DNA of 64,000 nucleotides from Candidatus Aenigmatarchaeota archaeon. GTDB taxonomy: Archaea > Aenigmatarchaeota > Aenigmatarchaeia > QMZS01. Positions 270 through 61,519 of this stretch are shown piece after piece. A program made the position numbers and the translations under genes. Below the pieces are notes generated by a model. That model saw only the letters and a program-made list of their open reading frames with translations, was not told where the DNA came from and did not search any database. Within the stretch, counting starts at the first letter, position 1; each line of letters opens with the position of its first letter. The DNA is taken from contig JAFGCN010000007.1 of assembly GCA_016932615.1 (NCBI GenBank), positions 19,189-83,188 of the forward strand, in the 5' to 3' direction.

Positions 270-358
270 ACTTTGGCAAAGCCACACCTTTTTTAAAAAA
301 AAGGCATTTTTATGGGCGTGTAGCTCAGCTTGGATAGAGCGCTACCCTTCTAAGTCAG

Positions 359-384
359 ACCTTCTTTCTTTAGAAAAGAAAGAA
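359..384 (+). repeat. intron hairpin (CTTCTTTCTTT / AAAGAAAGAA) 8 nt after the 5' splice site
   Basis: perfect 9-bp inverted repeat TCTTTCTTT-AGA-AAAGAAAGA. Confidence 0.6.
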
Positions 385-448
385 TGGCCGACACCTCCAA
401 GAAAGAAAACGGACGGTTGATGAAGTCAGGTAGACGTCGCAGGTAGAT

Positions 449-470
449 CCCTTTTCTTGAAAAGAAAAGG
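449..470 (+). repeat. intron hairpin (CCTTTTCTT-GAAA-AGAAAAGG)
   Basis: inverted repeat immediately downstream of the proposed T-loop splice site; same motif as 2163-2183. Confidence 0.6.
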
Positions 471-624
471 TCTCCATCCCAAAAGAAAAAGATTCAAGAA
501 AGACCGATGGAAGGCAAAGCCTCCCGTTATGTTCACCGTTTGGGGTGCAGACCTTTGGCCGAAGGCTAAAGGGTTGCTGCAATCGAATCCTGTCACGCCC
601 AAATTTTTAATTATATCTACACTT

Positions 625-1187
625 ATGTTTGACTATAAACTGGACGTTGGGGAAATGCTTGGAGAGATAAAAAGAGGTGAACGCTATGTCATCTTTCCGT
701 CAGAAATTGGAGAAAGAAAAGACCTGTTTGAAGAGCTTGGGGGGCTGGAGGTAAGCGACACCGATTTTTGGAAAATGTGTGGTCTGCATGGCACCTGGCA
801 AATTCCTGGACTTCCGGGGCTTTTTAGGGAAAAATACGGCCTAAGCGATGAGCAGGAGTTATTACTTGAGTTTCTCATAGAAAACGCCATAATTCATGGA
901 AACGAAATGACCCAGATAAGCAAATAGACATAAAAGTCCTTGTAGGAGACCACACTGCATTTAAGATAACAGACCAGGGGCTTGGATTCTACTCTCGTGA
1001 CGTCCAAGAGCGTTTTGAAAAGGGACTTCCCTATTCGGGAGGTAGTGGACTAGGCACCAGAGTAGCAGCCAAGTGCACCCAGTCGCGTCTTCGCTACCTG
1101 GAAAATGGAACTTCAGTAGAAGTGCTTTTCCTAAACCCAGAGGTTATGCCAAAGCCGTATTTTATGAAACTTTATCCAGCCCATTAG
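625..1187 (+). pseudogene. GHKL (histidine-kinase/anti-sigma-factor-like) ATPase, disrupted by a -1 frameshift near nt 904-908
   Basis: Frame 1 (625-927) ends ...EFLIENAIIHGNE, an N-box-like motif. Frame 0 continues NDPDKQIDIKVLVGDHTAFKITDQGLGF... (G1 box) and GGSGLGT (G2 box) up to the TAG at 1185-1187. The listed ORF start at 457 lies inside the tRNA; ATG 625 is the plausible start. Confidence 0.45.
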
Positions 1188-1193
1188 ACCAGT

Positions 1194-1421
1194 TCATCGC
1201 TCAACCCAGGTCCCAAGATCGTCCTTGACAAATTTTTCCTTTACCGCACTCCAGGCGACCTTGCTTGCAACCTCCTCCCTGCTCTCCTTATTTCGAATCC
1301 TCCTTGGGTCTCTGTAGGTTTCCCAGGCACTGTTAAATGCCTTCAGGTAAATTTCCTGGGCATGCTTTGGGAGCACTCTCCTGACAGAGGGAGGCAAATC
1401 GGTAAGGGATTTATGGGGCAT
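1194..1421 (-). CDS. ChaB family protein
   Basis: 75 aa; LPKHAQEIYLKAFNSAW motif typical of ChaB domain. Confidence 0.55.
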   Translation of the reverse strand: MPHKSLTDLPPSVRRVLPKHAQEIYLKAFNSAWETYRDPRRIRNKESREEVASKVAWSAVKEKFVKDDLGTWVER

Positions 1422-1486
1422 ATTTCATAAATATATGTTTTTTTCAGTATATATGCTACAGAAACTAACTCCTGTCCTGAAAGTAG

Positions 1487-1903
1487 CTAAACAGTAAGCC
1501 GGAGCTTTACTTCAGGGCAGCCGACAACCTCAACCATAACCTCAGTTATGCCTGGAAGAGTTGTCTGAAAGGAGATTGTCCGTATATCTGCCTTCTTTAT
1601 CACTTCAGCCACCTCCTTTAAAAGCTCCTGCCCCTTGTCGCTAAAGCCATAGACTGTGTAGCCCCGTATGTCTGCCCCCGAATTCTGAATCCGGATAAGC
1701 CCCTCCTGCGAGTTATTGTCATACTTGAAGTCCAGATGCTGAATGCTCACGCTCTGGCAATACGCATCCCCCTCAAGCTTTGAAATTTCACCCCGGGTGT
1801 AATTCATGGCCCAGGTGCCCACAATGGTCGCTATTGCAATGCTAAACGCGATAAGAAGAACAGAAGCAACGACAGGAGAAACCCCTTTGGGCCTATATCC
1901 CAT
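1487..1903 (-). CDS. class III signal peptide (archaeal type IV pilin-like) protein
   Basis: N-terminus RPKGVSPVVASVLLIAFSIAIATIV matches archaeal prepilin signal (KG-VSPV-hydrophobic). Confidence 0.55.
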   Translation of the reverse strand: MGYRPKGVSPVVASVLLIAFSIAIATIVGTWAMNYTRGEISKLEGDAYCQSVSIQHLDFKYDNNSQEGLIRIQNSGADIRGYTVYGFSDKGQELLKEVAEVIKKADIRTISFQTTLPGITEVMVEVVGCPEVKLRLTV

Positions 1904-1969
1904 AACTAATACCCTATTTTAAAATAACTCTGGCAATCATTTTATGCCTCTGTAGCTCAGTCGGCTGAA

Positions 1970-1990
1970 TCTTTTTCTTGCGAAGAAAAA
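1970..1990 (+). repeat. intron hairpin (CTTTTTCTT-GCG-AAGAAAAAG)
   Basis: perfect 9-bp inverted repeat 6 nt after proposed D-loop splice site. Confidence 0.6.
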
Positions 1991-2162
1991 GCTCCATGAC
2001 CAAAAAGAACCTGCGTTTTCCTTCGGGAAAACGATGCCTCATTTGCCCACGGGCAAATAGAGGGCAGTTTAGCCGCCTTGCGGCTTATAATTGACTACGG
2101 CTTGGAATTTCCGGCAAAGAGCGCGGGTTTTGTAAACCTGAGGTCGAGGGTTCAAGGTCATC

Positions 2163-2183
2163 CCTTTTCTTAAGAAGAAAAGG
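2163..2183 (+). repeat. intron hairpin (CCTTTTCTT-AAG-AAGAAAAGG)
   Basis: perfect 9-bp inverted repeat, nearly identical to 449-470. Confidence 0.6.
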
Positions 2184-2287
2184 TCTGACAACCCCAAAAG
2201 AAAGGGGGTTGTGATGAGGAGTCTCCCTCCAGGGGCTATATTTTATCAAAAACTATTTCTTTCAAACGAATTAATTCTGGAATTTTC

Positions 2288-7097: not shown

Positions 7098-8960
7098 ATG
7101 GATTATATCAAAGTCGTTGAGCAAAATCTCCCTGACGTTAGCGACGCCAGGATACACTACGAGGGAAGCAAGATTGTCGTATACACGAGAAATCTCAATT
7201 TTTTCCTCACAGGCGAAGACAAGATAAGGGGGATTGTGGACCAGATTAAAAAAAGAATAGAGGTAAGAATAGAGCCGGACACACTCCCTTCAACTGATGA
7301 CACCATAAAGAAAATAAAGGAGATTATCCCAAAAGACGCAGGAATTGAAGACATTTCATTTGAGCCGGATTTCTCGAAAGTCATAATAAGCGTGCGCCAG
7401 CCGCAGATTGCAGTTGGCGAAAGCGGGGAGACCGTAAAGGAGATAAAAAAGGAAACGCTATGGATTCCATTTGTCCAGAGAGTCGCTTCCCCAAAGTCCG
7501 TGCCTGTCGAAGCCATAAGGAAAGTTTTGTATGAAAGCTCGAAGTTCCGGAAGAAATTCCTTAATGACGTCGGAAAGCAGATTTACAGCGCTGAAAACAA
7601 GGACACCAAATGGGGGCGCGTATCCTGCCTTGGCGGAAGCAGGGAAGTAGGAAGGTCATGCTTCCTCCTCCAGACCCCAAACTCAAAAATACTAATGGAC
7701 TGCGGTCTGTCTACTGGCGCAACAGGGGAAGACCAGTACCCCATATTTCTCAGCGGCGAGTTCGACATAAACTCGCTTGACGCAATAATCCTGAGCCACG
7801 CGCACCTTGACCACTGCGGATTTATCCCTTACCTTTACAAAATGGGCTTTAACGGGCCTCTCTACTGCACTACCCCCACAAGGGAGCTTGCAGCCCTCCT
7901 CCAGATGGACACGATAGACATAATGCAAAAGGACATGGGAAAAAGCCTGTACACTTCAACTGACATAAAGAACATGATTAAGCACACGATACCGCTCAAA
8001 TATAAGGAGATAACTGACATCACTTCCGACATCCGGCTTATTTTCGAGAACGCAGGGCACCTCCTTGGAAGCGCAATCACCCACCTCAACATTTCAAATG
8101 GAAAAAGAAACCTTATCTACACCGGTGACATCAAGTATTCTGTCTCAAACCTTCTTGACCCTGCATTCACCCAATTCATGCGCTGCGAGTGTTTGATAAT
8201 GGAAAGCACTTACGGCGGGCCTAATGACCTAACGCCTCGGCTTGAAGACGCAGAAAAGGACCTTGTTTACGCAGTCGAGGAAACCGCAAAAAGAGGCGGA
8301 AAAGTTTTGATACCAAGCTTTGCGGTTGGAAGAGGCCAGGAGATAATGATAATACTTGACAAGTATGGAATAGACCTTCCGGTTTACATCGACGGAATGA
8401 TTTGGGATGCGTCATCCATACACTCGACTTACCCCAAGTACCTGTCCTACAAGCTTCAGAGGCAGATTATAGAGGAAAACAAAAACCCATTCGAGTCGGA
8501 CAAGTTCATCCATGTTGCAAGCAGAAAGGAGCGTGACCAGGTAATCGCAGACCAAAAGCCATTTGTGGTCCTGGCAACCTCCGGCATGGTAAACGGCGGG
8601 CCGATTATGGAATACATAAAGAAATTCGGCTCCGACCCTAAAAACACGCTTGTTTTCGTCGGTTACCAGGCGGAAGGCACGATCGGGAGAAAAATACAGA
8701 GAGGCGACAAGGTCATCGAAACCCCTGACGGCGAGCAGGTCGAAATCAACCTCCAGATAAAAACTATAGACGGGCTTTCCGGCCACTCAGACAGGAAACA
8801 ATTGCTAAATTACATCGGCCACCTGAAGGAAAAGCCGCAGCGGCTTGTAGTAGCCCACGGCGAGATGAGTAAGTGCGTCAACTTCGCGGATGCTGCAGGC
8901 AAGATTTTCGGGATAGATGCAATAGCGCCGTGGAACCTTGAGACATTCAGGTTTTTGTAG
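7098..8960 (+). CDS. fttA: archaeal CPSF1 / FttA (KH-KH-MBL-beta-CASP ribonuclease, transcription termination factor)
   Basis: 620 aa; N-terminal KH-like region then metallo-beta-lactamase motif ILSHAHLDHCG and beta-CASP region; size and architecture match aCPSF1. Confidence 0.8.
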   Translation: MDYIKVVEQNLPDVSDARIHYEGSKIVVYTRNLNFFLTGEDKIRGIVDQIKKRIEVRIEPDTLPSTDDTIKKIKEIIPKDAGIEDISFEPDFSKVIISVRQPQIAVGESGETVKEIKKETLWIPFVQRVASPKSVPVEAIRKVLYESSKFRKKFLNDVGKQIYSAENKDTKWGRVSCLGGSREVGRSCFLLQTPNSKILMDCGLSTGATGEDQYPIFLSGEFDINSLDAIILSHAHLDHCGFIPYLYKMGFNGPLYCTTPTRELAALLQMDTIDIMQKDMGKSLYTSTDIKNMIKHTIPLKYKEITDITSDIRLIFENAGHLLGSAITHLNISNGKRNLIYTGDIKYSVSNLLDPAFTQFMRCECLIMESTYGGPNDLTPRLEDAEKDLVYAVEETAKRGGKVLIPSFAVGRGQEIMIILDKYGIDLPVYIDGMIWDASSIHSTYPKYLSYKLQRQIIEENKNPFESDKFIHVASRKERDQVIADQKPFVVLATSGMVNGGPIMEYIKKFGSDPKNTLVFVGYQAEGTIGRKIQRGDKVIETPDGEQVEINLQIKTIDGLSGHSDRKQLLNYIGHLKEKPQRLVVAHGEMSKCVNFADAAGKIFGIDAIAPWNLETFRFL

Positions 8961-20877: not shown

Positions 20878-21710
20878 GTGGTCTATATTATGCTTCCTAT
20901 AACGCTTAGGCCCTGCCCCAAAAAGCATAGCTATGATCTGGACAAAGCAGAATTGCCTGAAGTTACTCTCAAAAGAGTCACTCATGCGCTGGAAACCCTG
21001 GACTCAGAAGTCAGCCTGGAAAATCTTGAAAGCAAGGAAAAACTTTGGGTGTACCGGGCAGTCTCAAAAAAATTTCTAGATATCGACCCGCCATACATCC
21101 GCTGCGGGAGGTCACACGGAAAAGGGGTGACGCAGGTACAAGCAAAATGCAGTGCCCCGATGTAGCAGGTCGAAAGAATAAATGCAAAAAACGTCATGCA
21201 GAACCTTGTAAGAGACCCGGAAACCTTGTTTGAGGCGTATGAAGGGCTCCCTAAAGAGTCGTCTATTCCAATCAGCCAACTGCTTTCCTATGGCTACCAC
21301 CCTTCATTTTACGCTCCCAATGCAGGGCAAGTCTTTAGGAAAAAGAAAATGATGTTCATGAAGGTCCACTGCCTGACAGACAAAACTGAAAAATACCTGC
21401 CGCTTTTCTGGCATCTCTATTTTTACGGAACAAATGGGTTTGCTTCCGGGAACACTTACGAAGAAGCGGTTCTTCGGGCGCTTTGCGAAGTTATCTAAAG
21501 ACATAATAAGATAGAAACCAGAAACAGGTACTTGGAAAGAAAGGAGATTTGGCTTGATTCCCACCAGGAGATTATCTCAGGTCTTCTCAGCAACCTGAAC
21601 GCCTGGGGGTTCAAGCCCATCCTTGAAGAGTGGAGCCGCCCGATACCAGTCCCCACTATCCAATGCAGACTCGGGTACAAGGCCGGATATGGCACATACC
21701 CCAAACCAAA
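20878..21710 (+). pseudogene. degraded YcaO-domain paralog (stop and frameshifts, C-terminus missing)
   Basis: Three ORF fragments (20878-21165, 21196-21498, 21532-~21710) align in order to the intact paralogs at 21966 and 25736. Fragment 1 stops at KCSAPM*, where the paralogs read KCSALMEWVER. Confidence 0.55.
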
Positions 21711-21965: not shown

Positions 21966-23168
21966 TTGCATATATATTTTATGCAACAAATAATGCTGGA
22001 AGCTTGTCCCAAAAAATACACCTATGATCAAGACAAGGCAGAATTGCCCGAAAAAACATTGGAAAATGTACTAGGCATACTAAAAGACAGACATATAGAA
22101 GTAGAATTCAGGGAAGTCCAAAGCCTACTGGGAATCCCGTTTTACAAGTTGATGTCCACCGACCCCGAACGAAATTACTCCTCATATCTATTTTCAGGCA
22201 GCTCTTCTGGAAAAGGATCAACGCGCTTCCAGTCAAAATGCAGCGCCCTTATGGAGTGGGTCGAGCGAGTAAACGCAGGGCAAATCCCAACTAGACTACT
22301 CAACAGCGAAGAGATGGTCCATTGCAGCTATAATGAACTCTGTACAAACTCCAGAATCGCCCCGAAAGAAATGCTGTCCTACAGCTTCCACCCCTCATTT
22401 AAAAGCAATGCCTCAGAAGAGATACTGAGACATAAAAAAATGCACTACCTGAAGTTCCAGTGCCTTTCCGGACAAGAGGGGGCATACCTTCCAATATTCT
22501 GGCACCTGTATTTCAACTGCTCAAACGGACTTGCTGCAGGGAATACTTATGAGGAAGCAATCCTTCAAGCATTGTGTGAAGTCGTAGAGCGTAATAATGT
22601 CATTGAAACAAGGCTGAGAAATCTAAAATATCGAAGAGAAATAGTGCTAGATACCGATTATAAGCCCTTGAGAGATATGTCTGAGGTGCTTCACAAACAA
22701 GGAATAACCCCCATTATAGAGGACTGGAGTTGTCCGATACCAATACCTACAATGCACTGCCGATTTGGACCCAGAGCGGGCTATGGAACCAGCACTAGCC
22801 CCATAAAGTCTGCCATAAGAGCGATAACTGAAATGGTTCAGGACTATGCGATAAACGAAAAACACTGCCTTCCGCCGCAGGAAAATATAATCTATCCTCC
22901 GGCGGATAAAAAGATAGAGCTAAGCAAAATAAAAAGTCTGGAAAGGCAGGATATCCTTTCAGAGATAAAGGAAATCGTCAGCACCCTTAATTCCATGGGG
23001 TACCAGACCTATGTCAGGGACATCTCCCTACAGATACCTGTGCCTACGGTTCTGGTGGTTGTTCCTGGGCTTAAATGCTATGATTTCAGAAATCAAGAGA
23101 GGCATCTTCTGGATTTTAAGAGCAACCTTGTCCAGTATTATAACGATTACCTCATATACCTGCGCTAA
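21966..23168 (+). CDS. YcaO-domain protein
   Basis: 400 aa; SGKGSTRFQSKCSALMEWVER matches the YcaO ATP-binding signature (GKG..T...A..SAL.E..ER). Confidence 0.7.
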   Translation: MHIYFMQQIMLEACPKKYTYDQDKAELPEKTLENVLGILKDRHIEVEFREVQSLLGIPFYKLMSTDPERNYSSYLFSGSSSGKGSTRFQSKCSALMEWVERVNAGQIPTRLLNSEEMVHCSYNELCTNSRIAPKEMLSYSFHPSFKSNASEEILRHKKMHYLKFQCLSGQEGAYLPIFWHLYFNCSNGLAAGNTYEEAILQALCEVVERNNVIETRLRNLKYRREIVLDTDYKPLRDMSEVLHKQGITPIIEDWSCPIPIPTMHCRFGPRAGYGTSTSPIKSAIRAITEMVQDYAINEKHCLPPQENIIYPPADKKIELSKIKSLERQDILSEIKEIVSTLNSMGYQTYVRDISLQIPVPTVLVVVPGLKCYDFRNQERHLLDFKSNLVQYYNDYLIYLR

Positions 23169-24006: not shown

Positions 24007-25503
24007 ATGTTCATCGAGCATCCTCTGATTAAAAAGGGGGCTTTGCAGATAAGAGACTATCAGGTCGAGATTGCAAAAAGCGCGATAAGTAAAAATACTC
24101 TTGTTGTGATACCTACCGGAATGGGAAAGACGAACATTGCGCTTCTCGTAGTCGCCGAGCGGCTCAATAAGGTGGATGGAAAGGTCCTTTTTCTTGCCCC
24201 CACAAAGCCGCTTGTCGAGCAACACAAGAAGACCTTTGAAAAGCTGTCTGAACTTGCAGACCTGGAAGTCATAACCGGGACAATAAGGCCGGACCTTCGC
24301 GGGAAGCACTACCAGCGCTCAAGAATTATATTTGCAACGCCCCAGACTATTGAAAATGACCTGAAGAGCGGAATTCTAAATTTCGAGGATTTTGTCCTGC
24401 TGATTGTTGATGAAGCGCACCGCTCTGTCGGAAACTATGCTTACACATACATTGCAGAAAACTATATGGGGCGGGCGAAAAATCCACTTCTTATCGCGCT
24501 TACCGCCTCTCCTGGAGGGAGGGTTGCACGGGTCGAGGAAATAAAGAAAAACCTGTTCATAGAATCAGTTGAATTTCGCTCTGAAAAAGATTCTGATGTT
24601 TCCCAGTATGTAAAAGACCGGGAAATGAATACTGTTCAGGTCGAGCTTCCAGCAGAATACCTTGAGGCAAAGAAACTTCTCCAGGAGATAATTTCGTCAA
24701 AGTCCGATACTCTTTGTTCAATGGGCGCGGTTCCTACAAAAAAGTTCTCCAAGAAGATGCTTTTGGAGTTCCAGAATTTCTACGCAAAGAAGGCAAGCCA
24801 GACGAAAAATCCCCGTCTCTTCCAAGCGATGTCAAAAATAGCCGAGCTGATAAAGCTGGACTACTGTCTTGAATTGCTTGAAACTCAAGGGGCGGCGCCT
24901 CTCAGGGAATACCTCAAAAAGCTGAAAACCGAAAGCACCAAGGCCTCAGCCAGCATGCTTAATAACCCCAAGTTTATGGGATTTTTAAAGCGTGCGGAAA
25001 ACCTGCCCGACCACCCCAAAATGAATGAGCTTGAAAAAATCGTCAAAAGCGAAATCGAAAAAAAGGTCATTGTGTTCACTCAGTACCGGGCCACAGCTAG
25101 CGACATACTATTTAACCTGAAGCGCATTGAGGGTGTGAAGCCCGCACTCCTGATAGGGCAGAAATCCGGCCTGACTCAAAAAGAGCAGGTAAGCGTCATC
25201 AGGGACTTTGAGGATGGGTTCTTTAATGTATTGATTTGCACATCCATTGGCGAGGAAGGGCTCGACATAAAAGGCGTTGGAACGGCCGTCTTTTACGAGC
25301 CGGTCCCTTCAGAAATAAGGAGCATCCAGAGAAGGGGGAGGGTTGCGCGGCTTGTCGAGGGAAAGCTGTATGTTCTGGTTGCAAAAGACACCCGGGATGA
25401 AGCATACTACTGGACGGCTTACCACAAGGAAAAGAAGATGAGCCGGTCGCTTGGTGGCGAAAAAGAGCAGGCAAAGCTGGGAGACTTTGAAAGCCAGGGG
25501 TAG
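24007..25503 (+). CDS. Hef/ERCC4-type superfamily 2 helicase (helicase domain only)
   Basis: VVIPTGMGKT Walker A, LIVDEAHRSVGNYAY (DEAH), QRRGRVAR motif VI; inserted helical region between RecA-like lobes typical of Hef/FANCM family. Confidence 0.6.
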   Translation: MFIEHPLIKKGALQIRDYQVEIAKSAISKNTLVVIPTGMGKTNIALLVVAERLNKVDGKVLFLAPTKPLVEQHKKTFEKLSELADLEVITGTIRPDLRGKHYQRSRIIFATPQTIENDLKSGILNFEDFVLLIVDEAHRSVGNYAYTYIAENYMGRAKNPLLIALTASPGGRVARVEEIKKNLFIESVEFRSEKDSDVSQYVKDREMNTVQVELPAEYLEAKKLLQEIISSKSDTLCSMGAVPTKKFSKKMLLEFQNFYAKKASQTKNPRLFQAMSKIAELIKLDYCLELLETQGAAPLREYLKKLKTESTKASASMLNNPKFMGFLKRAENLPDHPKMNELEKIVKSEIEKKVIVFTQYRATASDILFNLKRIEGVKPALLIGQKSGLTQKEQVSVIRDFEDGFFNVLICTSIGEEGLDIKGVGTAVFYEPVPSEIRSIQRRGRVARLVEGKLYVLVAKDTRDEAYYWTAYHKEKKMSRSLGGEKEQAKLGDFESQG

Positions 25504-25735: not shown

Positions 25736-26932
25736 ATGAAGCCAATCGTCCTGAAAAAATGCCTAAAGAAATATACCTACGACACCGACAAGGCAGAAAC
25801 GCCCAAAGACACTATCGGAAGAGTGACTCGGGTCCTAAAGGGGCAAGGACTAAATATCGTCTTCGAAAAGCTGGAAAACAGGGCAAATATTCCCGTCTAC
25901 CGCGTAGTTTCTGCCGATCCTTCCAAGGATTATTCTTCCCTAGTCTTTAGCGGAAAGGCGCACGGAAAAGGTGCGACTGAAAGCCAGGCGAAGTGCAGCG
26001 CTCTTATGGAGTGGGTGGAACGAGTAAATGCTGGAAACGCAATACGCCTGCTTGCAAAAGACAAGGAAACAATCTTCAGGGCTCATGAAACTATCCCTTC
26101 AGAATCCACTATAGATATCAAATATATGCTGTCTTACAGCCATAACCCTAGCTTTTATGGGAAAAGTGCAGAAAGGATTATCAAACGCAAAAAAATGCAT
26201 TTTATGAAAGCTTACTGCCTTACCGATAAACGGGAGAGATATCTACCATTTTTATGGCACCTGTACTTCAATGGGTCAAATGGGCTTGCCTCAGGAAACA
26301 CTTACGAGGAAGCTGTTCTTCAGGCGCTTTGTGAAGTTATCGAAAGACACAATATTGTGGAGATAAAGACATTAAATTCAAAAGTAAACGCTATCGAGCT
26401 AGGCTTTCCCTGCAAGCCCCTCGCAGAAATGCTTTCAAAAATCCAGGAAGTTACTGCAAGACCAATCATACAAAAGTGGAGCCGCCCGATACCAGTCCCC
26501 ACTGTCGCCTGCAGGCTACACGATAGCACTGGATACGGAACTGCTCCAAGCCCAGCAAAAGCAGCCATGAGAGCCATAACAGAAGCCATACAAGAAGATA
26601 CCGCTACGAGACGGTATGGACAAGATAGTGCCACAATCAAGATTGAGTCACAAGAGCCAATACCTCTCAGCAGTATGGAAAGCCTGGAGAGGGAAGATCT
26701 GTATGATGAGATTAATGAAATCTCAAGGATTCTTGAGTCCATGGGGCATATGATATATGTTATGGATTTCTCCTCAATCGTCCCCATACCCACTGTCGAG
26801 GTGATTGTGCCTGGACTCAGGTCTGTCGACTACACTGGAAGAGATCGCCACCTACGGGAATTTCAGTCTTGCCTTATTGAGTATTTTAACCTCGTAGCAA
26901 GCTTACCTCAGTGGAATATTTTAACCGCTTAG
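25736..26932 (+). CDS. YcaO-domain protein
   Basis: 398 aa; SGKAHGKGATESQAKCSALMEWVERVNAG signature; paralog of 21966-23168 (shared CxKKYTYDxDKAExP N-terminus). Confidence 0.7.
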   Translation: MKPIVLKKCLKKYTYDTDKAETPKDTIGRVTRVLKGQGLNIVFEKLENRANIPVYRVVSADPSKDYSSLVFSGKAHGKGATESQAKCSALMEWVERVNAGNAIRLLAKDKETIFRAHETIPSESTIDIKYMLSYSHNPSFYGKSAERIIKRKKMHFMKAYCLTDKRERYLPFLWHLYFNGSNGLASGNTYEEAVLQALCEVIERHNIVEIKTLNSKVNAIELGFPCKPLAEMLSKIQEVTARPIIQKWSRPIPVPTVACRLHDSTGYGTAPSPAKAAMRAITEAIQEDTATRRYGQDSATIKIESQEPIPLSSMESLEREDLYDEINEISRILESMGHMIYVMDFSSIVPIPTVEVIVPGLRSVDYTGRDRHLREFQSCLIEYFNLVASLPQWNILTA

Positions 26933-26992: not shown

Positions 26993-27183
26993 CGCTGGGG
27001 GCAAGATTTGAAATCGCGGAAAACCTCATAGCCAATTTAGCAGTAATATTCCTGCTTTGCAGGAATCTGCTTCTTTTGACGTTGAGGCATTATTCTTCCT
27101 CGGGAAGAATAAAGCTTCACTCGCGCCTCCTTGCGGAGACCAGCTTTCCAGGCTGGCGCCTTAGACCACTCGGCCACCCCAGC
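26993..27183 (-). tRNA. tRNA-Ser(GGA) with a ~107-nt intron between T-stem and T-loop (53/54)
   Basis: Minus-strand exon 1 (27183-27120): GCTGGGG-TG-GCC-GAGTGGTCTAA-GGC-G-CCAGC-CTGGAAA-GCTGG-long variable arm-GCGAG. Exon 2 (27012-26993): TTCAAAT-CTTGC-CCCCAGC-G. Acceptor arms pair perfectly; the T-stem GCGAG/CTTGC pairs with one G-U. Confidence 0.65.
27089..27112 (-). repeat. intron hairpin (TTTATTCTTCC-CGAG-GAAGAATAA) 6 nt after 5' splice site
   Basis: inverted repeat in tRNA-Ser intron, same pyrimidine-arm/purine-arm design as the other four intron hairpins. Confidence 0.55.
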
Positions 27184-44657: not shown

Positions 44658-45321
44658 ACTCGGGTGGGCTCGGTCCGGAAAAACTCTCTGCAGAAGGAGC
44701 AGAATCCTTTCTGCGCTTTAATCGCCACATTAGTAAAATAGCCAGGATTATTACTAGGAAGATTATTCCAATCACCCAATAATTGGTTTCCTGTGTTTCG
44801 CCATTCTCTATGTCTGGAGCGTCTTCACCACTCTCTGGACCGATCTCTAAAGATGACCCGGGGTTTTCAGAAACTATGCAGGCAGGAGAGTACATTGAAA
44901 CGTCAAGATTCGCCAGAGTACTATTCTGCTCATCATAAATTTTTATCATGGAAGCGTCCCTAAAATAGGGCACAATAAGGGTCTTGTTGAAGCTTTCGAC
45001 GAAATAAGGGCTTCCCGGGTCTTCGCCTTCCCTTGGCGGAGGCGGGAATATGATCTGATTAGTGCCATACCTGAAGGAATAAAGCACTTCCCCCGAGCAG
45101 GAGATGACTTCACAGGTGTGCCCCGACTCCGGCTGAATAAGCCGTTCCGGGAAATACCCTCTGCCAAGCTTAACCGCTGAATAATCCAGCTCGCCCTGGC
45201 TGTAGTGAATATCCACGACATAAATCGTCCCAAAAGCCCCCTGTACAGGGGCAAAACACACCAAAAAAGCAAATAAAGCCCCAAATATCCACGACCCCAT
45301 AACCTTAAACTCAATTTCCAT
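44644..45321 (-). CDS. secreted protein with C-terminal TM anchor
   Basis: signal peptide, C-terminal WVIGIIFLVIILAILLMWRLKRRK anchor. Confidence 0.35.
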   Translation of the reverse strand: MEIEFKVMGSWIFGALFAFLVCFAPVQGAFGTIYVVDIHYSQGELDYSAVKLGRGYFPERLIQPESGHTCEVISCSGEVLYSFRYGTNQIIFPPPPREGEDPGSPYFVESFNKTLIVPYFRDASMIKIYDEQNSTLANLDVSMYSPACIVSENPGSSLEIGPESGEDAPDIENGETQETNYWVIGIIFLVIILAILLMWRLKRRKDSAPSAESFSGPSPPEYGGY

Positions 45322-46759
45322 AGTAATCTAGCTGGCTCTCTATCTGAGCCAGGCAAACCGAACAAAAGCCATACCCTAGGTCCTTCATTATGCAGGAGTC
45401 GCTTGGCCGGTACCAGTTCGTATAGGAACATTCCCTGATGCAATCCATGCCCTGCCCCTCCCAGTCAGTGCAGGAAGGGCTCTCGTCGCAGTTGGGCGCC
45501 TCTTCAGGCATGCTTGTCGGCTGCCCATAGGAGTACTCGTCATAAAGCTTTCCAAAAGCGTGCCCAAACTCATGCACTGCTGCTTTTGTCTCGCTTCTCG
45601 CGACCACAGAAATTCCTTCCGTAATATATCCTCCCCCACCATAGGTCTCGCTGTCAAAGAGAACAATAATCTGGTCAGACGGACACCTCATGGCAAAAGT
45701 CTTTGTTTTTGGAACGTCACAGCAGATGAGCCGTGCAATGCCGGCGCAATTATAGTAGCACCCCAGGTCCCCGGAAAGATTGACCATATAGACATTTATC
45801 TTATTCACATTTTCCTTAAACGGGGAATATGAGAGCAGGGACTCAGTGTGGTTTTGGACATCGCTTCTGAATTTAGACAGGTCTACATAGCCATGCCCGA
45901 CAAAAACCACATTCAGGTTGCTTGATGAAGGACCTGTATGAATAAGGGGGATGCAATATTCCCCAACGGTTTCATTGCCTGCAGAATCTGCAACCCTGAA
46001 CTCCACCCTTGCCTCAGAAGACCTGCCGAAAGCATCATCTACCTTCAAAGTTGCTGTGTGAATTCCCAGGTCCATGCTGGATACCTCAATGACCGATTTG
46101 TTTCCCAGGTGCTTTCCGTCCAGTTCCCAGCCATAATTGTAAGGTGCTTTTCCGCCAGAAATCCACGCCTTAAACGTAATCGTTTCGTCCATTCCATATT
46201 GCGTCCCATTCACGGGAAGAGATATGAGGGCGGTCACATTTCCGGCACTGGAGGTATTTCCTCCGGTATTGCCGTTATCTGAAGAGAATACATTAAGGTC
46301 CCTTACCGATATATACCTTCCATCTGCAACGTAGGAGATTTCCACAAGCGCATCCTTCGCGCCTACAGACCACTTGAGCTTGTCCTGGTCATCATACGAT
46401 TCTGATGTGCAAAAGCTGCAGTTGCCTGTGGAGCAGATATTATTCGGAATCTGCTTGCAATCAAGCTGCTGAGTAACAGTCCTTTCGGTGAAATTCCCTG
46501 TCGCATTGACGATTATTTCTGCGCAAATGTCTGAGGAAGGGTCAAGCCCGCCGCGATGGTTTTCCCAGCAAAGCTCTATCTCTTCAGCAAGCCGTTTTGA
46601 GACATGGCTTGTGTCTCCAAACAAAACATCATCCGCACTCGTGTCAAAAACCCCGGAATACCTTGCGATGAAATAAAACATAATCGCCCCAATTACAAGC
46701 GCTATTATAAGGTACATATAATCCGTAAGCGTGTCCAGTGCGCCCTTCATCTTAGCCAA
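45311..46759 (-). CDS. M64 (IgA-peptidase-like) zinc metallopeptidase with pilin-like N-terminus
   Basis: VHEFGHAFGKLYDEY matches M64 HExxH...DEY signature; N-terminus MKGALDTLTDYMYLIIALVIGAIMFYF. Confidence 0.55.
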   Translation of the reverse strand: MAKMKGALDTLTDYMYLIIALVIGAIMFYFIARYSGVFDTSADDVLFGDTSHVSKRLAEEIELCWENHRGGLDPSSDICAEIIVNATGNFTERTVTQQLDCKQIPNNICSTGNCSFCTSESYDDQDKLKWSVGAKDALVEISYVADGRYISVRDLNVFSSDNGNTGGNTSSAGNVTALISLPVNGTQYGMDETITFKAWISGGKAPYNYGWELDGKHLGNKSVIEVSSMDLGIHTATLKVDDAFGRSSEARVEFRVADSAGNETVGEYCIPLIHTGPSSSNLNVVFVGHGYVDLSKFRSDVQNHTESLLSYSPFKENVNKINVYMVNLSGDLGCYYNCAGIARLICCDVPKTKTFAMRCPSDQIIVLFDSETYGGGGYITEGISVVARSETKAAVHEFGHAFGKLYDEYSYGQPTSMPEEAPNCDESPSCTDWEGQGMDCIRECSYTNWYRPSDSCIMKDLGYGFCSVCLAQIESQLDYYGN

Positions 46760-53180: not shown

Positions 53181-54636
<1,456 letters not shown>

Positions 54637-56908: not shown

Positions 56909-57313
56909 TTAGGGCCTTTCCAAGCCAACTTTTGCAATCATGTCTGCGCCCTTCTTGGTTAGAATCCTGCCCATCCTCTTTGTCTTGGACTTCTCGACAA
57001 GACCGCTGTTTTCGAGCTGTATCAGGATTGTCCTTATAAGCTTTCTTGAGCCGCGGAAAAATTTGTCTGTCCTCGAACCCCGGTTCTTCCTTCCGCCATA
57101 GTGGTTGGCCAGCCGCTCTGTCCCGATAGGGCCGTTTATGTAAACTTTCCTCAATATGGAGGCAGACCTTATGTACCACCAGCCGTCATCCTGGGGCACC
57201 CTTTCCCGGGAAACTCCTGTCCTTATGAATCTTGCCCACTCTGGCATCTCGACAATCTTCTCACTCTTCAGTTTTTTCGACAATTCCGCCAGTTTCAGGT
57301 TCATTTCTTCCAT
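56909..57313 (-). CDS. rps19e: ribosomal protein S19e
   Basis: WARFIRTGVSRERVPQDDGWWYIRSASILRKVYINGPIGTERL...GSRKLIRTILIQLE matches eS19 family. Confidence 0.8.
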   Translation of the reverse strand: MEEMNLKLAELSKKLKSEKIVEMPEWARFIRTGVSRERVPQDDGWWYIRSASILRKVYINGPIGTERLANHYGGRKNRGSRTDKFFRGSRKLIRTILIQLENSGLVEKSKTKRMGRILTKKGADMIAKVGLERP

Positions 57314-58719: not shown

Positions 58720-59295
58720 TTAGCGAATCGACTCCTTTAGCCCTTTTTCGAACTTCAAGCGAAAGTCCTTGTTTTTCTGGAGCTTCTCGTCAGCAAGCTT
58801 CAGGAGGTAAACCAGGTATTCCTTTGGCACAAGAGGCCTGCCGCCCTCCATTACCGGAACCGCCATGGAGGGTGTCCCGTTAAGCTCAAGGACGTACCTT
58901 TCCGGCTTGAAGACAAACACACCCGAGTGTTTCAGCCCACACTTTATGCCAAGGTCCAGCATCCTTGTCGCCTCGGTCAGGGTCCTTGATGCGATGTGTA
59001 TTATGAAGGGCTCCTGCTTAAGCCACACCCTGCCGCCAAGGCCCTCCGGGCTTGCATTCAGGAAGTCGTCAGGGTTTACCTTCTCGTGCTCCTTTACTAT
59101 AAACTCATTGTCCACCTTCCTCTTTCCAAACTCATGAAGGAAAATAACTCTTCCTGAGCAGCTTGAAGTCGTATAGTAGTCAGTGAGGGAATTTATGTAG
59201 TTAATCATCTCGATAATGGGTCTATCCACCTTGCCCTCTTCAAGCGCCAGGGAATATTTTTTCATCGCCTTTAGCTTATCATTTCTAAATCCCAT
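58720..59295 (-). CDS. taw3: tRNA wybutosine-synthesizing protein 3 (Taw3/TYW3)
   Basis: YYTTSSCSGRVIFL motif of TYW3 family; 191 aa. Confidence 0.75.
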   Translation of the reverse strand: MGFRNDKLKAMKKYSLALEEGKVDRPIIEMINYINSLTDYYTTSSCSGRVIFLHEFGKRKVDNEFIVKEHEKVNPDDFLNASPEGLGGRVWLKQEPFIIHIASRTLTEATRMLDLGIKCGLKHSGVFVFKPERYVLELNGTPSMAVPVMEGGRPLVPKEYLVYLLKLADEKLQKNKDFRLKFEKGLKESIR

Positions 59296-60724: not shown

Positions 60725-61519
60725 CTACCTGAATTTAAAATCCACGCAATACCTTGAGATTTTGGCAGAGTATGTGCCGCACTCGACAACATCCAGCACT
60801 TCAACATCCTCCTTAACCTTGCTTAATGCATCTTCCCTGGACTCCGCGAAAACATAGAGATGTATCACTGCGCCGTCTTGGGAAGCGCCCCTTGCCACAT
60901 CGAGAAAAGTTTCTGCATCCTTTGGAAGAGGCATTATTATGCGGTCGAACCTCTCTTCAAGCTTTGGCACGACTTCCCGGACGTCACCGCAGAAAAAACG
61001 TACCCTCCGCCCGACCTTGTTAAGCCGCACGTTTTCTTCCATGTAGCGCACGGCCTCGGGATTTATTTCGACGGCATAGACCATTTCCGGCTTTGCGCGC
61101 TTTGCAATCTGGATTGCGTATGGGCCGATTCCGGCAAACATAACCAGAACCTTTTCGCCTTCCTGCACAAGTCCCACAATCCGCTCCCGCTCGTTTCCAA
61201 GGCGAGGGGAAAAATAGGCCTTAGTGACATCAACCTTGTAGCGGCTTCCATACTCAACATATATCGTCTCTCTCTTGTCCTCCCCCGCAAGAAGAGAGTA
61301 CCGCCTTACCCGGAACTCATCTTCAACAGCGCTCTCACGCTTCAGGACAGTCTTTAGGTTCTTGAAGGACAATAGCTTCTCCCCAATTTCCCTTTCCTTG
61401 CTTTTTAACTCATCCGGAATCCAGATTATTGCAATGTCGCCGACCATGTCAAAGGCAGAAGGGGCAAACTTCATCTCCTCTTCAGTAAGCACACCAGCCA
61501 GCAGTTCTTTTAGTTTCAT
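60725..61519 (-). CDS. Trm5/Taw2 family tRNA methyltransferase (Met-10+ like)
   Basis: FDMVGDIAII, YFSPRLGNER, MFAGIGPYAI motifs. Confidence 0.75.
   Translation of the reverse strand: MKLKELLAGVLTEEEMKFAPSAFDMVGDIAIIWIPDELKSKEREIGEKLLSFKNLKTVLKRESAVEDEFRVRRYSLLAGEDKRETIYVEYGSRYKVDVTKAYFSPRLGNERERIVGLVQEGEKVLVMFAGIGPYAIQIAKRAKPEMVYAVEINPEAVRYMEENVRLNKVGRRVRFFCGDVREVVPKLEERFDRIIMPLPKDAETFLDVARGASQDGAVIHLYVFAESREDALSKVKEDVEVLDVVECGTYSAKISRYCVDFKFR

Follow-up and report, generated by a model that had tools for sequence, protein, structure and literature searches.

Predicted tRNA-Arg(UCU) and tRNA-Thr(UGU) genes of a Candidatus Aenigmatarchaeota contig, each interrupted by two introns, and a hairpin-plus-mirror module near the intron 5' ends

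Two loci near the start of a 64,000-nt stretch of the Candidatus Aenigmatarchaeota contig JAFGCN010000007.1 (the whole stretch is referred to here as the window) read like tRNA genes in pieces, and the question that they raise is whether they are working genes interrupted by introns and, if so, what the interrupting sequences are. ARAGORN, run on the raw window with and without its intron mode, found no tRNA, and Rfam at the gathering threshold gave a single tRNA match in the window (26993-27183, reverse strand, 37.9 bits). In the E-value mode of Rfam, sub-threshold partial tRNA matches were obtained at 314-399 (19.1 bits, the 5' part of a tRNA) and 2099-2166 (17 bits, the middle part); the other matches in that mode (ciliate telomerase RNA, CRISPR-DR37) were set aside as chance. 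On the evidence set out below, it is highly probable that both loci are functional tRNA-Arg(UCU) and tRNA-Thr(UGU) genes, each split by two bulge-helix-bulge (BHB) introns.

Two tRNA genes with two introns each

BHB motifs are cleaved with two-fold symmetry: in either 3-nt bulge the cut separates nucleotide 2 from nucleotide 3. Junctions were set by the standard BHB register, that is, by the anticodon-intron pair rule together with symmetric bulge cleavage, and each chosen pair of junctions was ranked against all 625 pairs within ±12 nt. The resulting genes and introns are given below, together with a third interrupted gene, tRNA-Ser(GGA); H denotes the helix between the two bulges, h the outer helix and h' the inner helix.

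314-601, forward strand, 288 nt: tRNA-Arg(TCT) gene, exons 314-352, 428-444 and 583-601
353-427, forward strand, 75 nt: Arg intron 1, canonical position 37/38, strict hBHBh' motif
445-582, forward strand, 138 nt: Arg intron 2, T-loop position 54/55, relaxed HBh'-type motif
1946-2237, forward strand, 292 nt: tRNA-Thr(TGT) gene, exons 1946-1965, 2118-2156 and 2224-2237
1966-2117, forward strand, 152 nt: Thr intron 1, D-loop position 20/21
2157-2223, forward strand, 67 nt: Thr intron 2, T-loop position 59/60
26993-27183, reverse strand: tRNA-Ser(GGA) gene, exons 27183-27120 and 27012-26993 (the Rfam match of 37.9 bits)
27119-27013, reverse strand, 107 nt: tRNA-Ser intron, T-loop position 53/54, H = CGCG/CGCG

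When 353-427 and 445-582 were spliced out in silico, ARAGORN called the resulting 75-nt RNA as tRNA-Arg(tct), and with 1966-2117 and 2157-2223 removed the 73-nt product was called as tRNA-Thr(tgt); the spliced 84-nt RNA of the third gene was called as tRNA-Ser(gga). The spliced Arg and Thr RNAs have 7-bp acceptor stems, standard D, anticodon and T arms and, according to ARAGORN, D-loops of 8-10 nt, and the complementarity of the acceptor strands can be read directly from the sequence (GGGCGTG/CACGCCC in tRNA-Arg, GCCTCTG/CAGGGGC in tRNA-Thr). The discriminator bases are A601 in tRNA-Arg, where CCA is not encoded, and T2237 in tRNA-Thr; a T5 run lies directly past the mature 3' end of tRNA-Arg, and oligo-T past that of tRNA-Thr too. 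The mature D-loop of tRNA-Thr is AGTCGGCA; a D-loop junction at 1965|2116, which gave a 10-nt D-loop, was replaced by 1965|2118 once the BHB register had been derived.

All five introns of the window show a 4-bp helix between two 3-nt bulges, in register with the exon ends. H is paired at 4/4 positions in Arg introns 1 and 2, in Thr intron 1 (with one G.U) and in the Ser intron, and at 3/4 positions in Thr intron 2. Arg intron 1 has an H of four pairs (347-350/422-425), all Watson-Crick, with bulges TA|A and TC|A; the anticodon stem (5 bp) serves as h, h' likewise has 5 bp, and the full BHB was recovered in the local minimum-free-energy fold. The strict hBHBh' form of this intron is matched by Thr intron 2 except for one H mismatch (2151-2154/2218-2221, an A/G mismatch; bulges AG|G and TC|T); here h is the 5-bp T stem and h' the 5-bp TCATC/GATGA, and the minimum-free-energy fold has the outer and inner helices around a 7x7 loop. 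The remaining motifs are relaxed, of types that broad-specificity EndA enzymes are known to handle. Arg intron 2, which has no h, has four Watson-Crick pairs in H (439-442/577-580, GCAG/CTGC) with bulges GT|A and AA|T, and the chosen junction restores the T-loop TTCGAAT. In Thr intron 1, H is 1960-1963/2112-2115 (G-C, U.G, C-G, G-C) with bulges GC|T and AA|A, and the minimum-free-energy fold recovered the H helix and the 3' bulge. The Ser intron has an h of 2 bp. Among the 625 candidate pairs, the chosen junctions of Arg intron 1, Thr intron 2 and the Ser intron ranked 1st, those of Thr intron 1 7th and those of Arg intron 2 11th.

A preliminary description of this DNA had named the same two genes with two introns each, a claim with which in-silico splicing and ARAGORN, BHB geometry and the orthologues described below all agree. 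The canonical cloverleafs with complementary acceptor arms that it proposed are those of the spliced RNAs called by ARAGORN, with their 7-bp acceptor stems, and its introns after position 37, in the D-loop and in the T-loops correspond to BHB geometry at 37/38, 20/21, 54/55 and 59/60. Two details needed correction. Within its span of 313-2237 the gene places and the sizes of about 290 nt stand, but the tRNA-Arg gene starts at 314 and not at 313; and its title, which made all intron positions non-canonical, is right for 54/55, 20/21 and 59/60 but not for Arg intron 1, which occupies the canonical position.

No Rfam family of group I or group II introns was matched at E ≤ 10 beyond the partial tRNA matches, the Arg and Thr introns being 67-152 nt long, and a simple, non-exhaustive scan of the window returned no further hidden tRNAs. 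A C/D-box small RNA or kink-turn in the introns was also considered and rejected: the sole candidate, CTGA...TGATGA in Thr intron 2, has a 1-nt bulge, its GATGA is needed for h' of that intron, and the other introns are without the boxes. A listed open reading frame (ORF) of 156 aa (457-927, forward strand) has no Pfam match; because it begins within Arg intron 2 and crosses exon 3, its 5' part is an artefact, and its true coding sequence probably begins at the ATG at 625-627. The stretch of about 930-1190, past the stop of that ORF, may continue a protein in another frame.

Orthologous genes provided independent information on the tRNA-Thr locus. A metagenome scan with the Thr anticodon-arm core as query returned eight loci, three of which (contigs L130 and L134, which are mutually identical, and L137) carry orthologous tRNA-Thr genes with both intron positions, 20/21 and 59/60, kept; L137 is syntenic with the window, with a pilin-like gene upstream of tRNA-Thr. 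The five more distant organisms (L131-L133, L135, L136) have genes that are intron-less or otherwise interrupted. Across the window, L130/L134 and L137 the acceptor stems are identical and the exons 90-100% identical, while the D-loop introns are 35-58% identical (152, 65 and 110 nt long) and the T-loop introns 35-77% identical (67, 78 and 171 nt), the 77% being that between the window and L130. The BHB helix of the D-loop intron changes from GUCG/CGGC in the window to CCCG/CGGG in L130, with four pairs kept and a two-sided compensatory change included; H of the T-loop intron in L137 is a perfect TTCA/TGAA, and T-loop 59/60 introns of other genomes likewise have TTCG/CGAA or TTCA/TGAA pairing. 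Because exons and intron positions are conserved in L130/L134 and L137, a chance origin of the arrangement is excluded. About 150 nt upstream of the functional tRNA-Thr, the 5' exon recurs in decayed form (CCTCTGT...) in L130 (at ~40-150) and also in L134, with a homologue of the window-type D-loop intron behind it, which suggests that introns may turn over through partial gene duplication.

The aCPSF1 gene of the window (7098-8960) encodes a protein 100% identical to that of a Candidatus Aenigmarchaeota archaeon metagenome-assembled genome (MAG), the next relatives being metagenomic and 67-86% identical; this places the host among the Aenigmarchaeota and so in DPANN. When the surroundings of aCPSF1 were compared for synteny with those in relatives (L001-L006, L127-L129), orthologues of the Arg and Thr genes were absent and only one multi-intron tRNA-Ser came to light. 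This tRNA-Ser(TGA), in L001 (80% aCPSF1 identity; 21210-21560, reverse strand), apparently has three introns, identified by eye in the D-loop, anticodon loop and T-loop; its T-loop intron is homologous to that of the window tRNA-Ser(GGA), and its anticodon-loop intron and the module of Thr intron 2 (see below) share 95.8% identity over 48 nt. Type I CRISPR-Cas genes adjoin aCPSF1 on the L001 contig.

Several observations weigh against the functional reading of the two loci. Arg intron 2 is without an outer helix, and in Thr intron 1 the outer helix (the D stem) is offset by 1 nt by A1959 and the inner helix has 3 bp. Because the junctions of these two introns rank 11th and 7th, they may be off by 1-2 nt and are the least certain of the set. 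The T5 run inside Thr intron 1 could terminate archaeal RNA polymerase, the D stem of the L137 orthologue contains a C/U mismatch, and a Pfam scan of 48 window ORFs revealed neither EndA nor RtcB.

If the genes function as we propose, each would be transcribed as a single precursor of ~290 nt, in which the exon bases just 5' of a splice site would pair with the last nucleotides of the intron to give the 4-bp helix and two 3-nt bulges. As in known archaeal tRNA splicing, EndA would cleave between bulge nucleotides 2 and 3, after which RtcB ligase would join the exons and circularise the intron. Expression, the two enzymes and the order of intron removal are inferred here, and what the sequences show is the exons, the geometry of the junctions and the conserved intron positions. 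With relaxed or non-canonically placed motifs in three of the four introns, the host would be expected to have a broad-specificity EndA, as in other DPANN.

A hairpin-plus-mirror module near the intron 5' ends

In 5/5 window introns a module starts 5-9 nt past the 5' splice site. A perfectly paired pyrimidine/purine hairpin (for example, CCTTTTCTT-gaa-AAGAAAAGG) comes first; after a spacer of 8-15 nt that is richer in GC there follows a purine tract (for example, AAAAGAA), which mirrors the purine arm of the hairpin. The copies and the one other such hairpin are as follows.

362-408, forward strand: module of Arg intron 1, hairpin 362-384 TTCTTTCTTT aga AAAGAAAGAA, mirror 399-408 AAGAAAGAAA
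450-487, forward strand: module of Arg intron 2, hairpin 450-470 CCTTTTCTT gaa AAGAAAAGG, mirror 481-487 AAAAGAA
538-572, forward strand: degenerate inverted module at the 3' end of Arg intron 2, GTTTGGGG at 538-545, hairpin 552-572 CCTTTGGCC gaa GGCTAAAGG
1971-2009, forward strand: module of Thr intron 1, hairpin 1971-1991 CTTTTTCTT gcg AAGAAAAAG, mirror 2002-2009 AAAAAGAA
2163-2202, forward strand: module of Thr intron 2, hairpin 2163-2183 CCTTTTCTT aag AAGAAAAGG, mirror 2196-2202 AAAAGAA
27093-27109, reverse strand: hairpin core of the same hairpin/mirror module in the tRNA-Ser intron
287-304: perfect pyrimidine/purine hairpin CCTTTTTT-aa-AAAAAAGG, 10 nt upstream of the tRNA-Arg 5' end, without a mirror tract

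The perfect hairpin of Arg intron 1 has 10 bp and a mirror match of 10/10; in Thr intron 1 the purine arm AAGAAAAA is followed by AAAAAGAA, with the G at the mirrored and not at the direct position. The inverted hairpin at 552-572 is present in the minimum-free-energy fold. Perfect pyrimidine/purine hairpins of at least 7 bp number six in the 64-kb window, where dinucleotide-preserving resampling predicts 0.66 (200 resamplings gave at most 4); five of the six are the intron module copies, and the sixth, the only one outside introns, is the hairpin at 287-304, which overlaps an A/T-rich, TATA-like region. The 5' module of ~45 nt is the only sequence shared among the five introns, its copies are alike only in structurally constrained segments, none of them is nearly identical to another, and the 64-kb window has no copy outside tRNA genes. 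BHB splicing uses junction-proximal nucleotides only, and the module lies outside them.

A census of other genomes (one per species), with a pattern derived from the window copies that pre-imposes part of the motif, yielded at least 120 loci. The 86 matches listed are rich in Aenigmatarchaeota, Micrarchaeota, Iainarchaeota, Nanoarchaeota/Woesearchaeota, ANME-1 and Methanosarcinales, and the bacterial matches among them are mostly low-complexity noise. The exception is Selenomonadaceae, which have very long versions. Six loci (L019, L033, L034, L078, L105, L115), three of them assigned to Selenomonadaceae, contain very long intrastrand mirror/inverted purine-pyrimidine elements with arms of 19-25 nt and mirror matches of 22/22, 19/19 and 24/25; they are bacterial counterparts of the motif, and they may be repeated elements. 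Archaeal mirror matches reach 14/14.

The ~45-nt module was found in four DPANN phyla, at tRNA positions 37/38, 20/21, 53/54, 54/55 and 59/60 and also outside tRNA genes, in three contexts. In DPANN it lies just past the 5' splice sites of T-loop, D-loop and anticodon-loop introns, as in the canonical intron of a tRNA-Pro gene that Rfam calls as a 136-nt tRNA (L038) and at 12 further loci (L018, L025, L036, L043, L061, L062, L066, L101, L102, L110 with two copies, L122, L124). Also in DPANN, it follows complete tRNA genes at a distance of 4-7 nt, which Rfam coordinates confirm for L060, L069 and L090. The third context is an inverted module 5-10 nt upstream of the ATG of genes for uL14, eS6, Spt5, an OB-fold protein, pilin-like proteins, an RFC-like protein (identified by eye) and others, in DPANN (L031, L032, L037, L082, L103, L114) as well as in ANME-1/Methanosarcinales (L017, L029, L063, L083, L109). 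In the DPANN cases a conserved TATA-like box resembling AATAATATTGAAGAC stands ~25 nt further upstream, so that the inverted module would fill the whole 5' untranslated region in the pyrimidine, triplex-competent sense. Introns of L036 and L137, and Arg intron 2 in degenerate form, have inverted copies of the module at both ends; these two-module introns showed no target-site duplications.

The mirror relationship was tested on 82 distinct asymmetric purine arms, drawn from all pyrimidine/purine hairpins of the window and the census loci, including additional copies and variant sequences within those loci. A perfect mirror copy lay 3-33 nt downstream for 31/82, compared with a perfect direct copy for 7 and a mean of 4.0 (maximum 9) for shuffled arms. 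Arm lengths were perfectly correlated, with T4/A4/A4 or T5/A5/A5 in 38/38 copies, and the one residue in which the modules of the window and L130 T-loop introns differ is changed in all three strands. Because this three-strand covariation persists in orthologous introns, selection and not mere descent is indicated. At the hairpin base there is a conserved C.C (sometimes C.U) mismatch, bridged by two more Watson-Crick pairs, at many loci (L013, L021, L069, L100 and L107 among them); 17 C.C and 5 C.T were counted among 121 strand-unambiguous copies. The window copies (5/5) fit the class II intrastrand triplex layout of pyrimidine arm, purine arm and mirror purine arm, and the opposite strand would permit a pyrimidine-motif U.A-U / C+.G-C triplex. 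The G.U versus A.C test for the functional RNA strand gave 2 versus 3, too few cases to tell, and a blind count of the side on which the hairpin lies relative to coding-sequence starts gave 13 proximal versus 6 distal, which is statistically unconvincing.

Competing explanations

Our best guess about the module, made with low confidence, is that it would fold as an independent unit and descend from one ancestral intron or trailer. Such a unit might keep a long intron from disturbing the tRNA fold and the BHB, and the mirror repeat might be under selection for a three-strand, triplex-type geometry, both again with low confidence. Against this reading of the module, stable purine-motif triplexes are not known for RNA.

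It is possible, if doubtful, that the introns are or derive from a small mobile or duplicative cassette with the module at its ends and without a host role, of the kind of miniature inverted-repeat transposable elements or of the 'transposed introns' of Thermoproteales, in which intron transposition is documented (PMC4090602). The recurrence of the ~45-nt module in different tRNAs, positions and phyla and outside tRNA genes speaks for such a cassette, as do the inverted modules at both ends of L036, L137 and Arg intron 2, which resemble terminal inverted repeats. Because the helix partner of T-loop 59/60 introns is the universal T-loop TTCR, these introns would in addition be portable between tRNAs. 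However, the two-module introns lack target-site duplications, the window copies resemble one another only where structure constrains them, there are none in the window outside tRNA genes, and the covariation of the three strands has been maintained in orthologous introns.

A second explanation, which we regard as rather unlikely, makes the module a selected triple helix that marks where highly expressed genes or exons begin or end, formed by single-stranded non-template DNA, as H-DNA or in pyrimidine-sense RNA, with tRNA introns as one use among others. The excess of mirror copies (31 versus 7 direct and 4.0 shuffled) favors this explanation, and so do a subfamily in which all triplets are canonical on both strands, the inverted copies ahead of start codons and behind a TATA-like box, the related motifs in ANME-1 and Methanosarcinales with the very long ones in Selenomonadaceae, and the existence of class II intrastrand triplex motifs in bacteria (PMC4666352). 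On the other hand, the transcribed strand of the tRNA introns has the purine-motif sense, which is unfavorable in RNA, the orientation of the hairpin side is unconvincing, and the loci were retrieved by a pattern that already contained part of the motif. An extended version appears less likely still: that in DPANN and some other archaea selection maintains the module as a triple helix of DNA or RNA that marks the boundaries of exons and genes, and that tRNA introns of these lineages were built from it, either as the fused trailer-plus-leader of once-separate tRNA pieces or as a portable BHB cassette entering T-loops via the universal TTCR. If that were true, there would be a concrete route by which archaeal tRNA genes gain introns, and the module would be the first triplex motif in nature with a link to tRNA processing.

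Turning to the genes themselves, the pieces could be expressed separately and joined in trans as in Nanoarchaeum, with the module as terminator and the 3' part of the intron as promoter or leader. The pyrimidine arm of the module is indeed oligo-T-like (T5 in Thr intron 1), the module occurs past complete DPANN tRNA genes where a terminator is expected (L060, L069, L090), and a TTATAA lies ~27 nt upstream of Thr exon 2. Yet the pieces are colinear and adjacent, all within 288-292 nt; a TATA-like box at a suitable distance is absent from four of the five introns; introns go down to 49-75 nt, which leaves no room for a promoter; and T4 tracts are weak terminators, all of which makes trans-joining very improbable. 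That the loci are dead tRNA pseudogenes broken by insertions is hardly credible at all, for although standard detectors fail on both, two BHB motifs are relaxed, and the decayed exon with its D-loop intron remnant in L130 attests to remnants in the lineage, the exons assemble into flawless cloverleaves, every insertion is bounded by an in-register BHB, and relatives keep the exons, the intron positions and, through compensatory change in otherwise diverged introns, the BHB pairing.

The window and known systems

Beyond the interrupted genes, the window contains an archaeal 16S rRNA gene (53182-54636) whose 3' end reads GGATCACCTCA; an ORF inside it (53763-54212, reverse strand) is spurious. 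Because no 23S gene or tRNA lies within 9 kb past the 16S gene (to ~64000), the rRNA genes are unlinked. Genes for TYW3 (58720-59295, reverse strand) and a Trm5/TYW2-type methyltransferase (60725-61519, reverse strand), which belong to wyosine-family modification of tRNA position 37, are found near the gene for ribosomal protein eS19 (56909-57313), whose leader has no module. In the ~20-kb segment 32902-52973, 13/14 scanned ORFs are without a Pfam match, the exception being a Peptidase_M64 of 482 aa (45311-46759), and three further ORFs of 801-1036 aa lie there outside the Pfam scan; because VWA-domain and pilin-like genes flank this segment, it may be a cell-surface or host-interaction cluster. 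Paralogous YcaO-domain genes (21966-23168 and 25736-26932) flank a DEAD/ResIII helicase gene (24007-25503).

The Arg and Thr genes are of a kind already known, that of multi-intron tRNAs in DPANN and Thermoproteales, and are new as individual genes, while the hairpin-plus-mirror module that opens the introns appears to be previously undescribed. Because ARAGORN and Rfam at the gathering threshold miss Arg and Thr, and ARAGORN misses Ser too, Aenigmarchaeota MAGs would seem to lack these isoacceptors, and tRNAs missed in this way affect completeness estimates and inferences of host dependence. The module, being common to introns at five tRNA positions, to trailers and to mRNA leaders in several phyla, offers a sequence tag for tracing the origin and spread of introns, and its three-strand covariation suggests that selection acts on a nucleic-acid triplex in archaea, something of which we found no description in the literature searched. 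That literature likewise returned no study devoted to Aenigmarchaeota tRNA introns and no report linking intrastrand triplex motifs with archaeal tRNA genes.

Natural RNA triple helices with U.A-U triples occur in ENE/MALAT1-type elements and in the SAM-II and preQ1-II riboswitches. The module in its pyrimidine sense (mRNA leaders, some intron 3' ends) could likewise form 7-9 U.A-U / C+.G-C triples; unlike those RNAs, it has no A-rich 3' tail clamp or ligand pocket, so the likeness is one of geometry alone. A closer parallel in layout is provided by the class II intrastrand triplex motifs of bacteria (E. coli PIT/BoxC; Holder et al. 2015, PMC4666352), which also place pyrimidine arm, purine arm and mirror purine arm on one strand. 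The module differs from these in being A/T-rich and not G/C-rich, in its second loop of 8-15 nt, and in its occurrence in archaea, at tRNA introns, trailers and gene starts; PMC4666352 makes no mention of tRNA.

Among interrupted tRNAs, the multi-intron genes of Thermoproteales (Sugahara 2008, Fujishima 2010, reviewed in PMC4090602) resemble the window genes in several ways: a tRNA may have two to three BHB introns, their sites are both canonical and non-canonical (20/21, 53/54 and 59/60 among them), relaxed motifs of the HBh'/hBH type occur, and unrelated tRNAs have related intron sequences; the review documents these sites and motifs, several introns per tRNA and intron transposition for Thermoproteales and Nanoarchaeota. 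In contrast, the window comes from a mesophile-type DPANN MAG (Aenigmarchaeota, ~47% GC), and its introns resemble one another in a ~45-nt module, found also in tRNA trailers and mRNA leaders, and not over their whole length. The preliminary description had placed multiple non-canonical introns mainly in Thermoproteales and a few other lineages; this holds for Thermoproteales, but several DPANN groups have multiple non-canonical tRNA introns as well, as PMC5829648 documents. Disrupted tRNAs of ARMAN/Micrarchaeota, Nanoarchaeota and Woese-/Pacearchaeota (PMC3239211, PMC5829648) belong to the same superphylum, include non-canonical and multiple introns, and leave tRNA sets that look incomplete to standard predictors, a problem of 'incomplete tRNA sets' flagged earlier for DPANN in PMC5829648; DPANN lineages whose EndA carries an inserted loop have disrupted tRNA genes according to that paper. 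Aenigmarchaeota fall outside the genomes analysed in the two papers, and a conserved intron module is not described in the parts consulted. Finally, the split tRNAs of Nanoarchaeum equitans resemble the window genes in that a BHB formed by complementary flanks joins the pieces, and because the module also sits in tRNA 3' trailers, the 5' ends of the window introns themselves look like trailers; unlike the Nanoarchaeum pieces, those of the window are colinear within 290 nt and are most likely spliced in cis.

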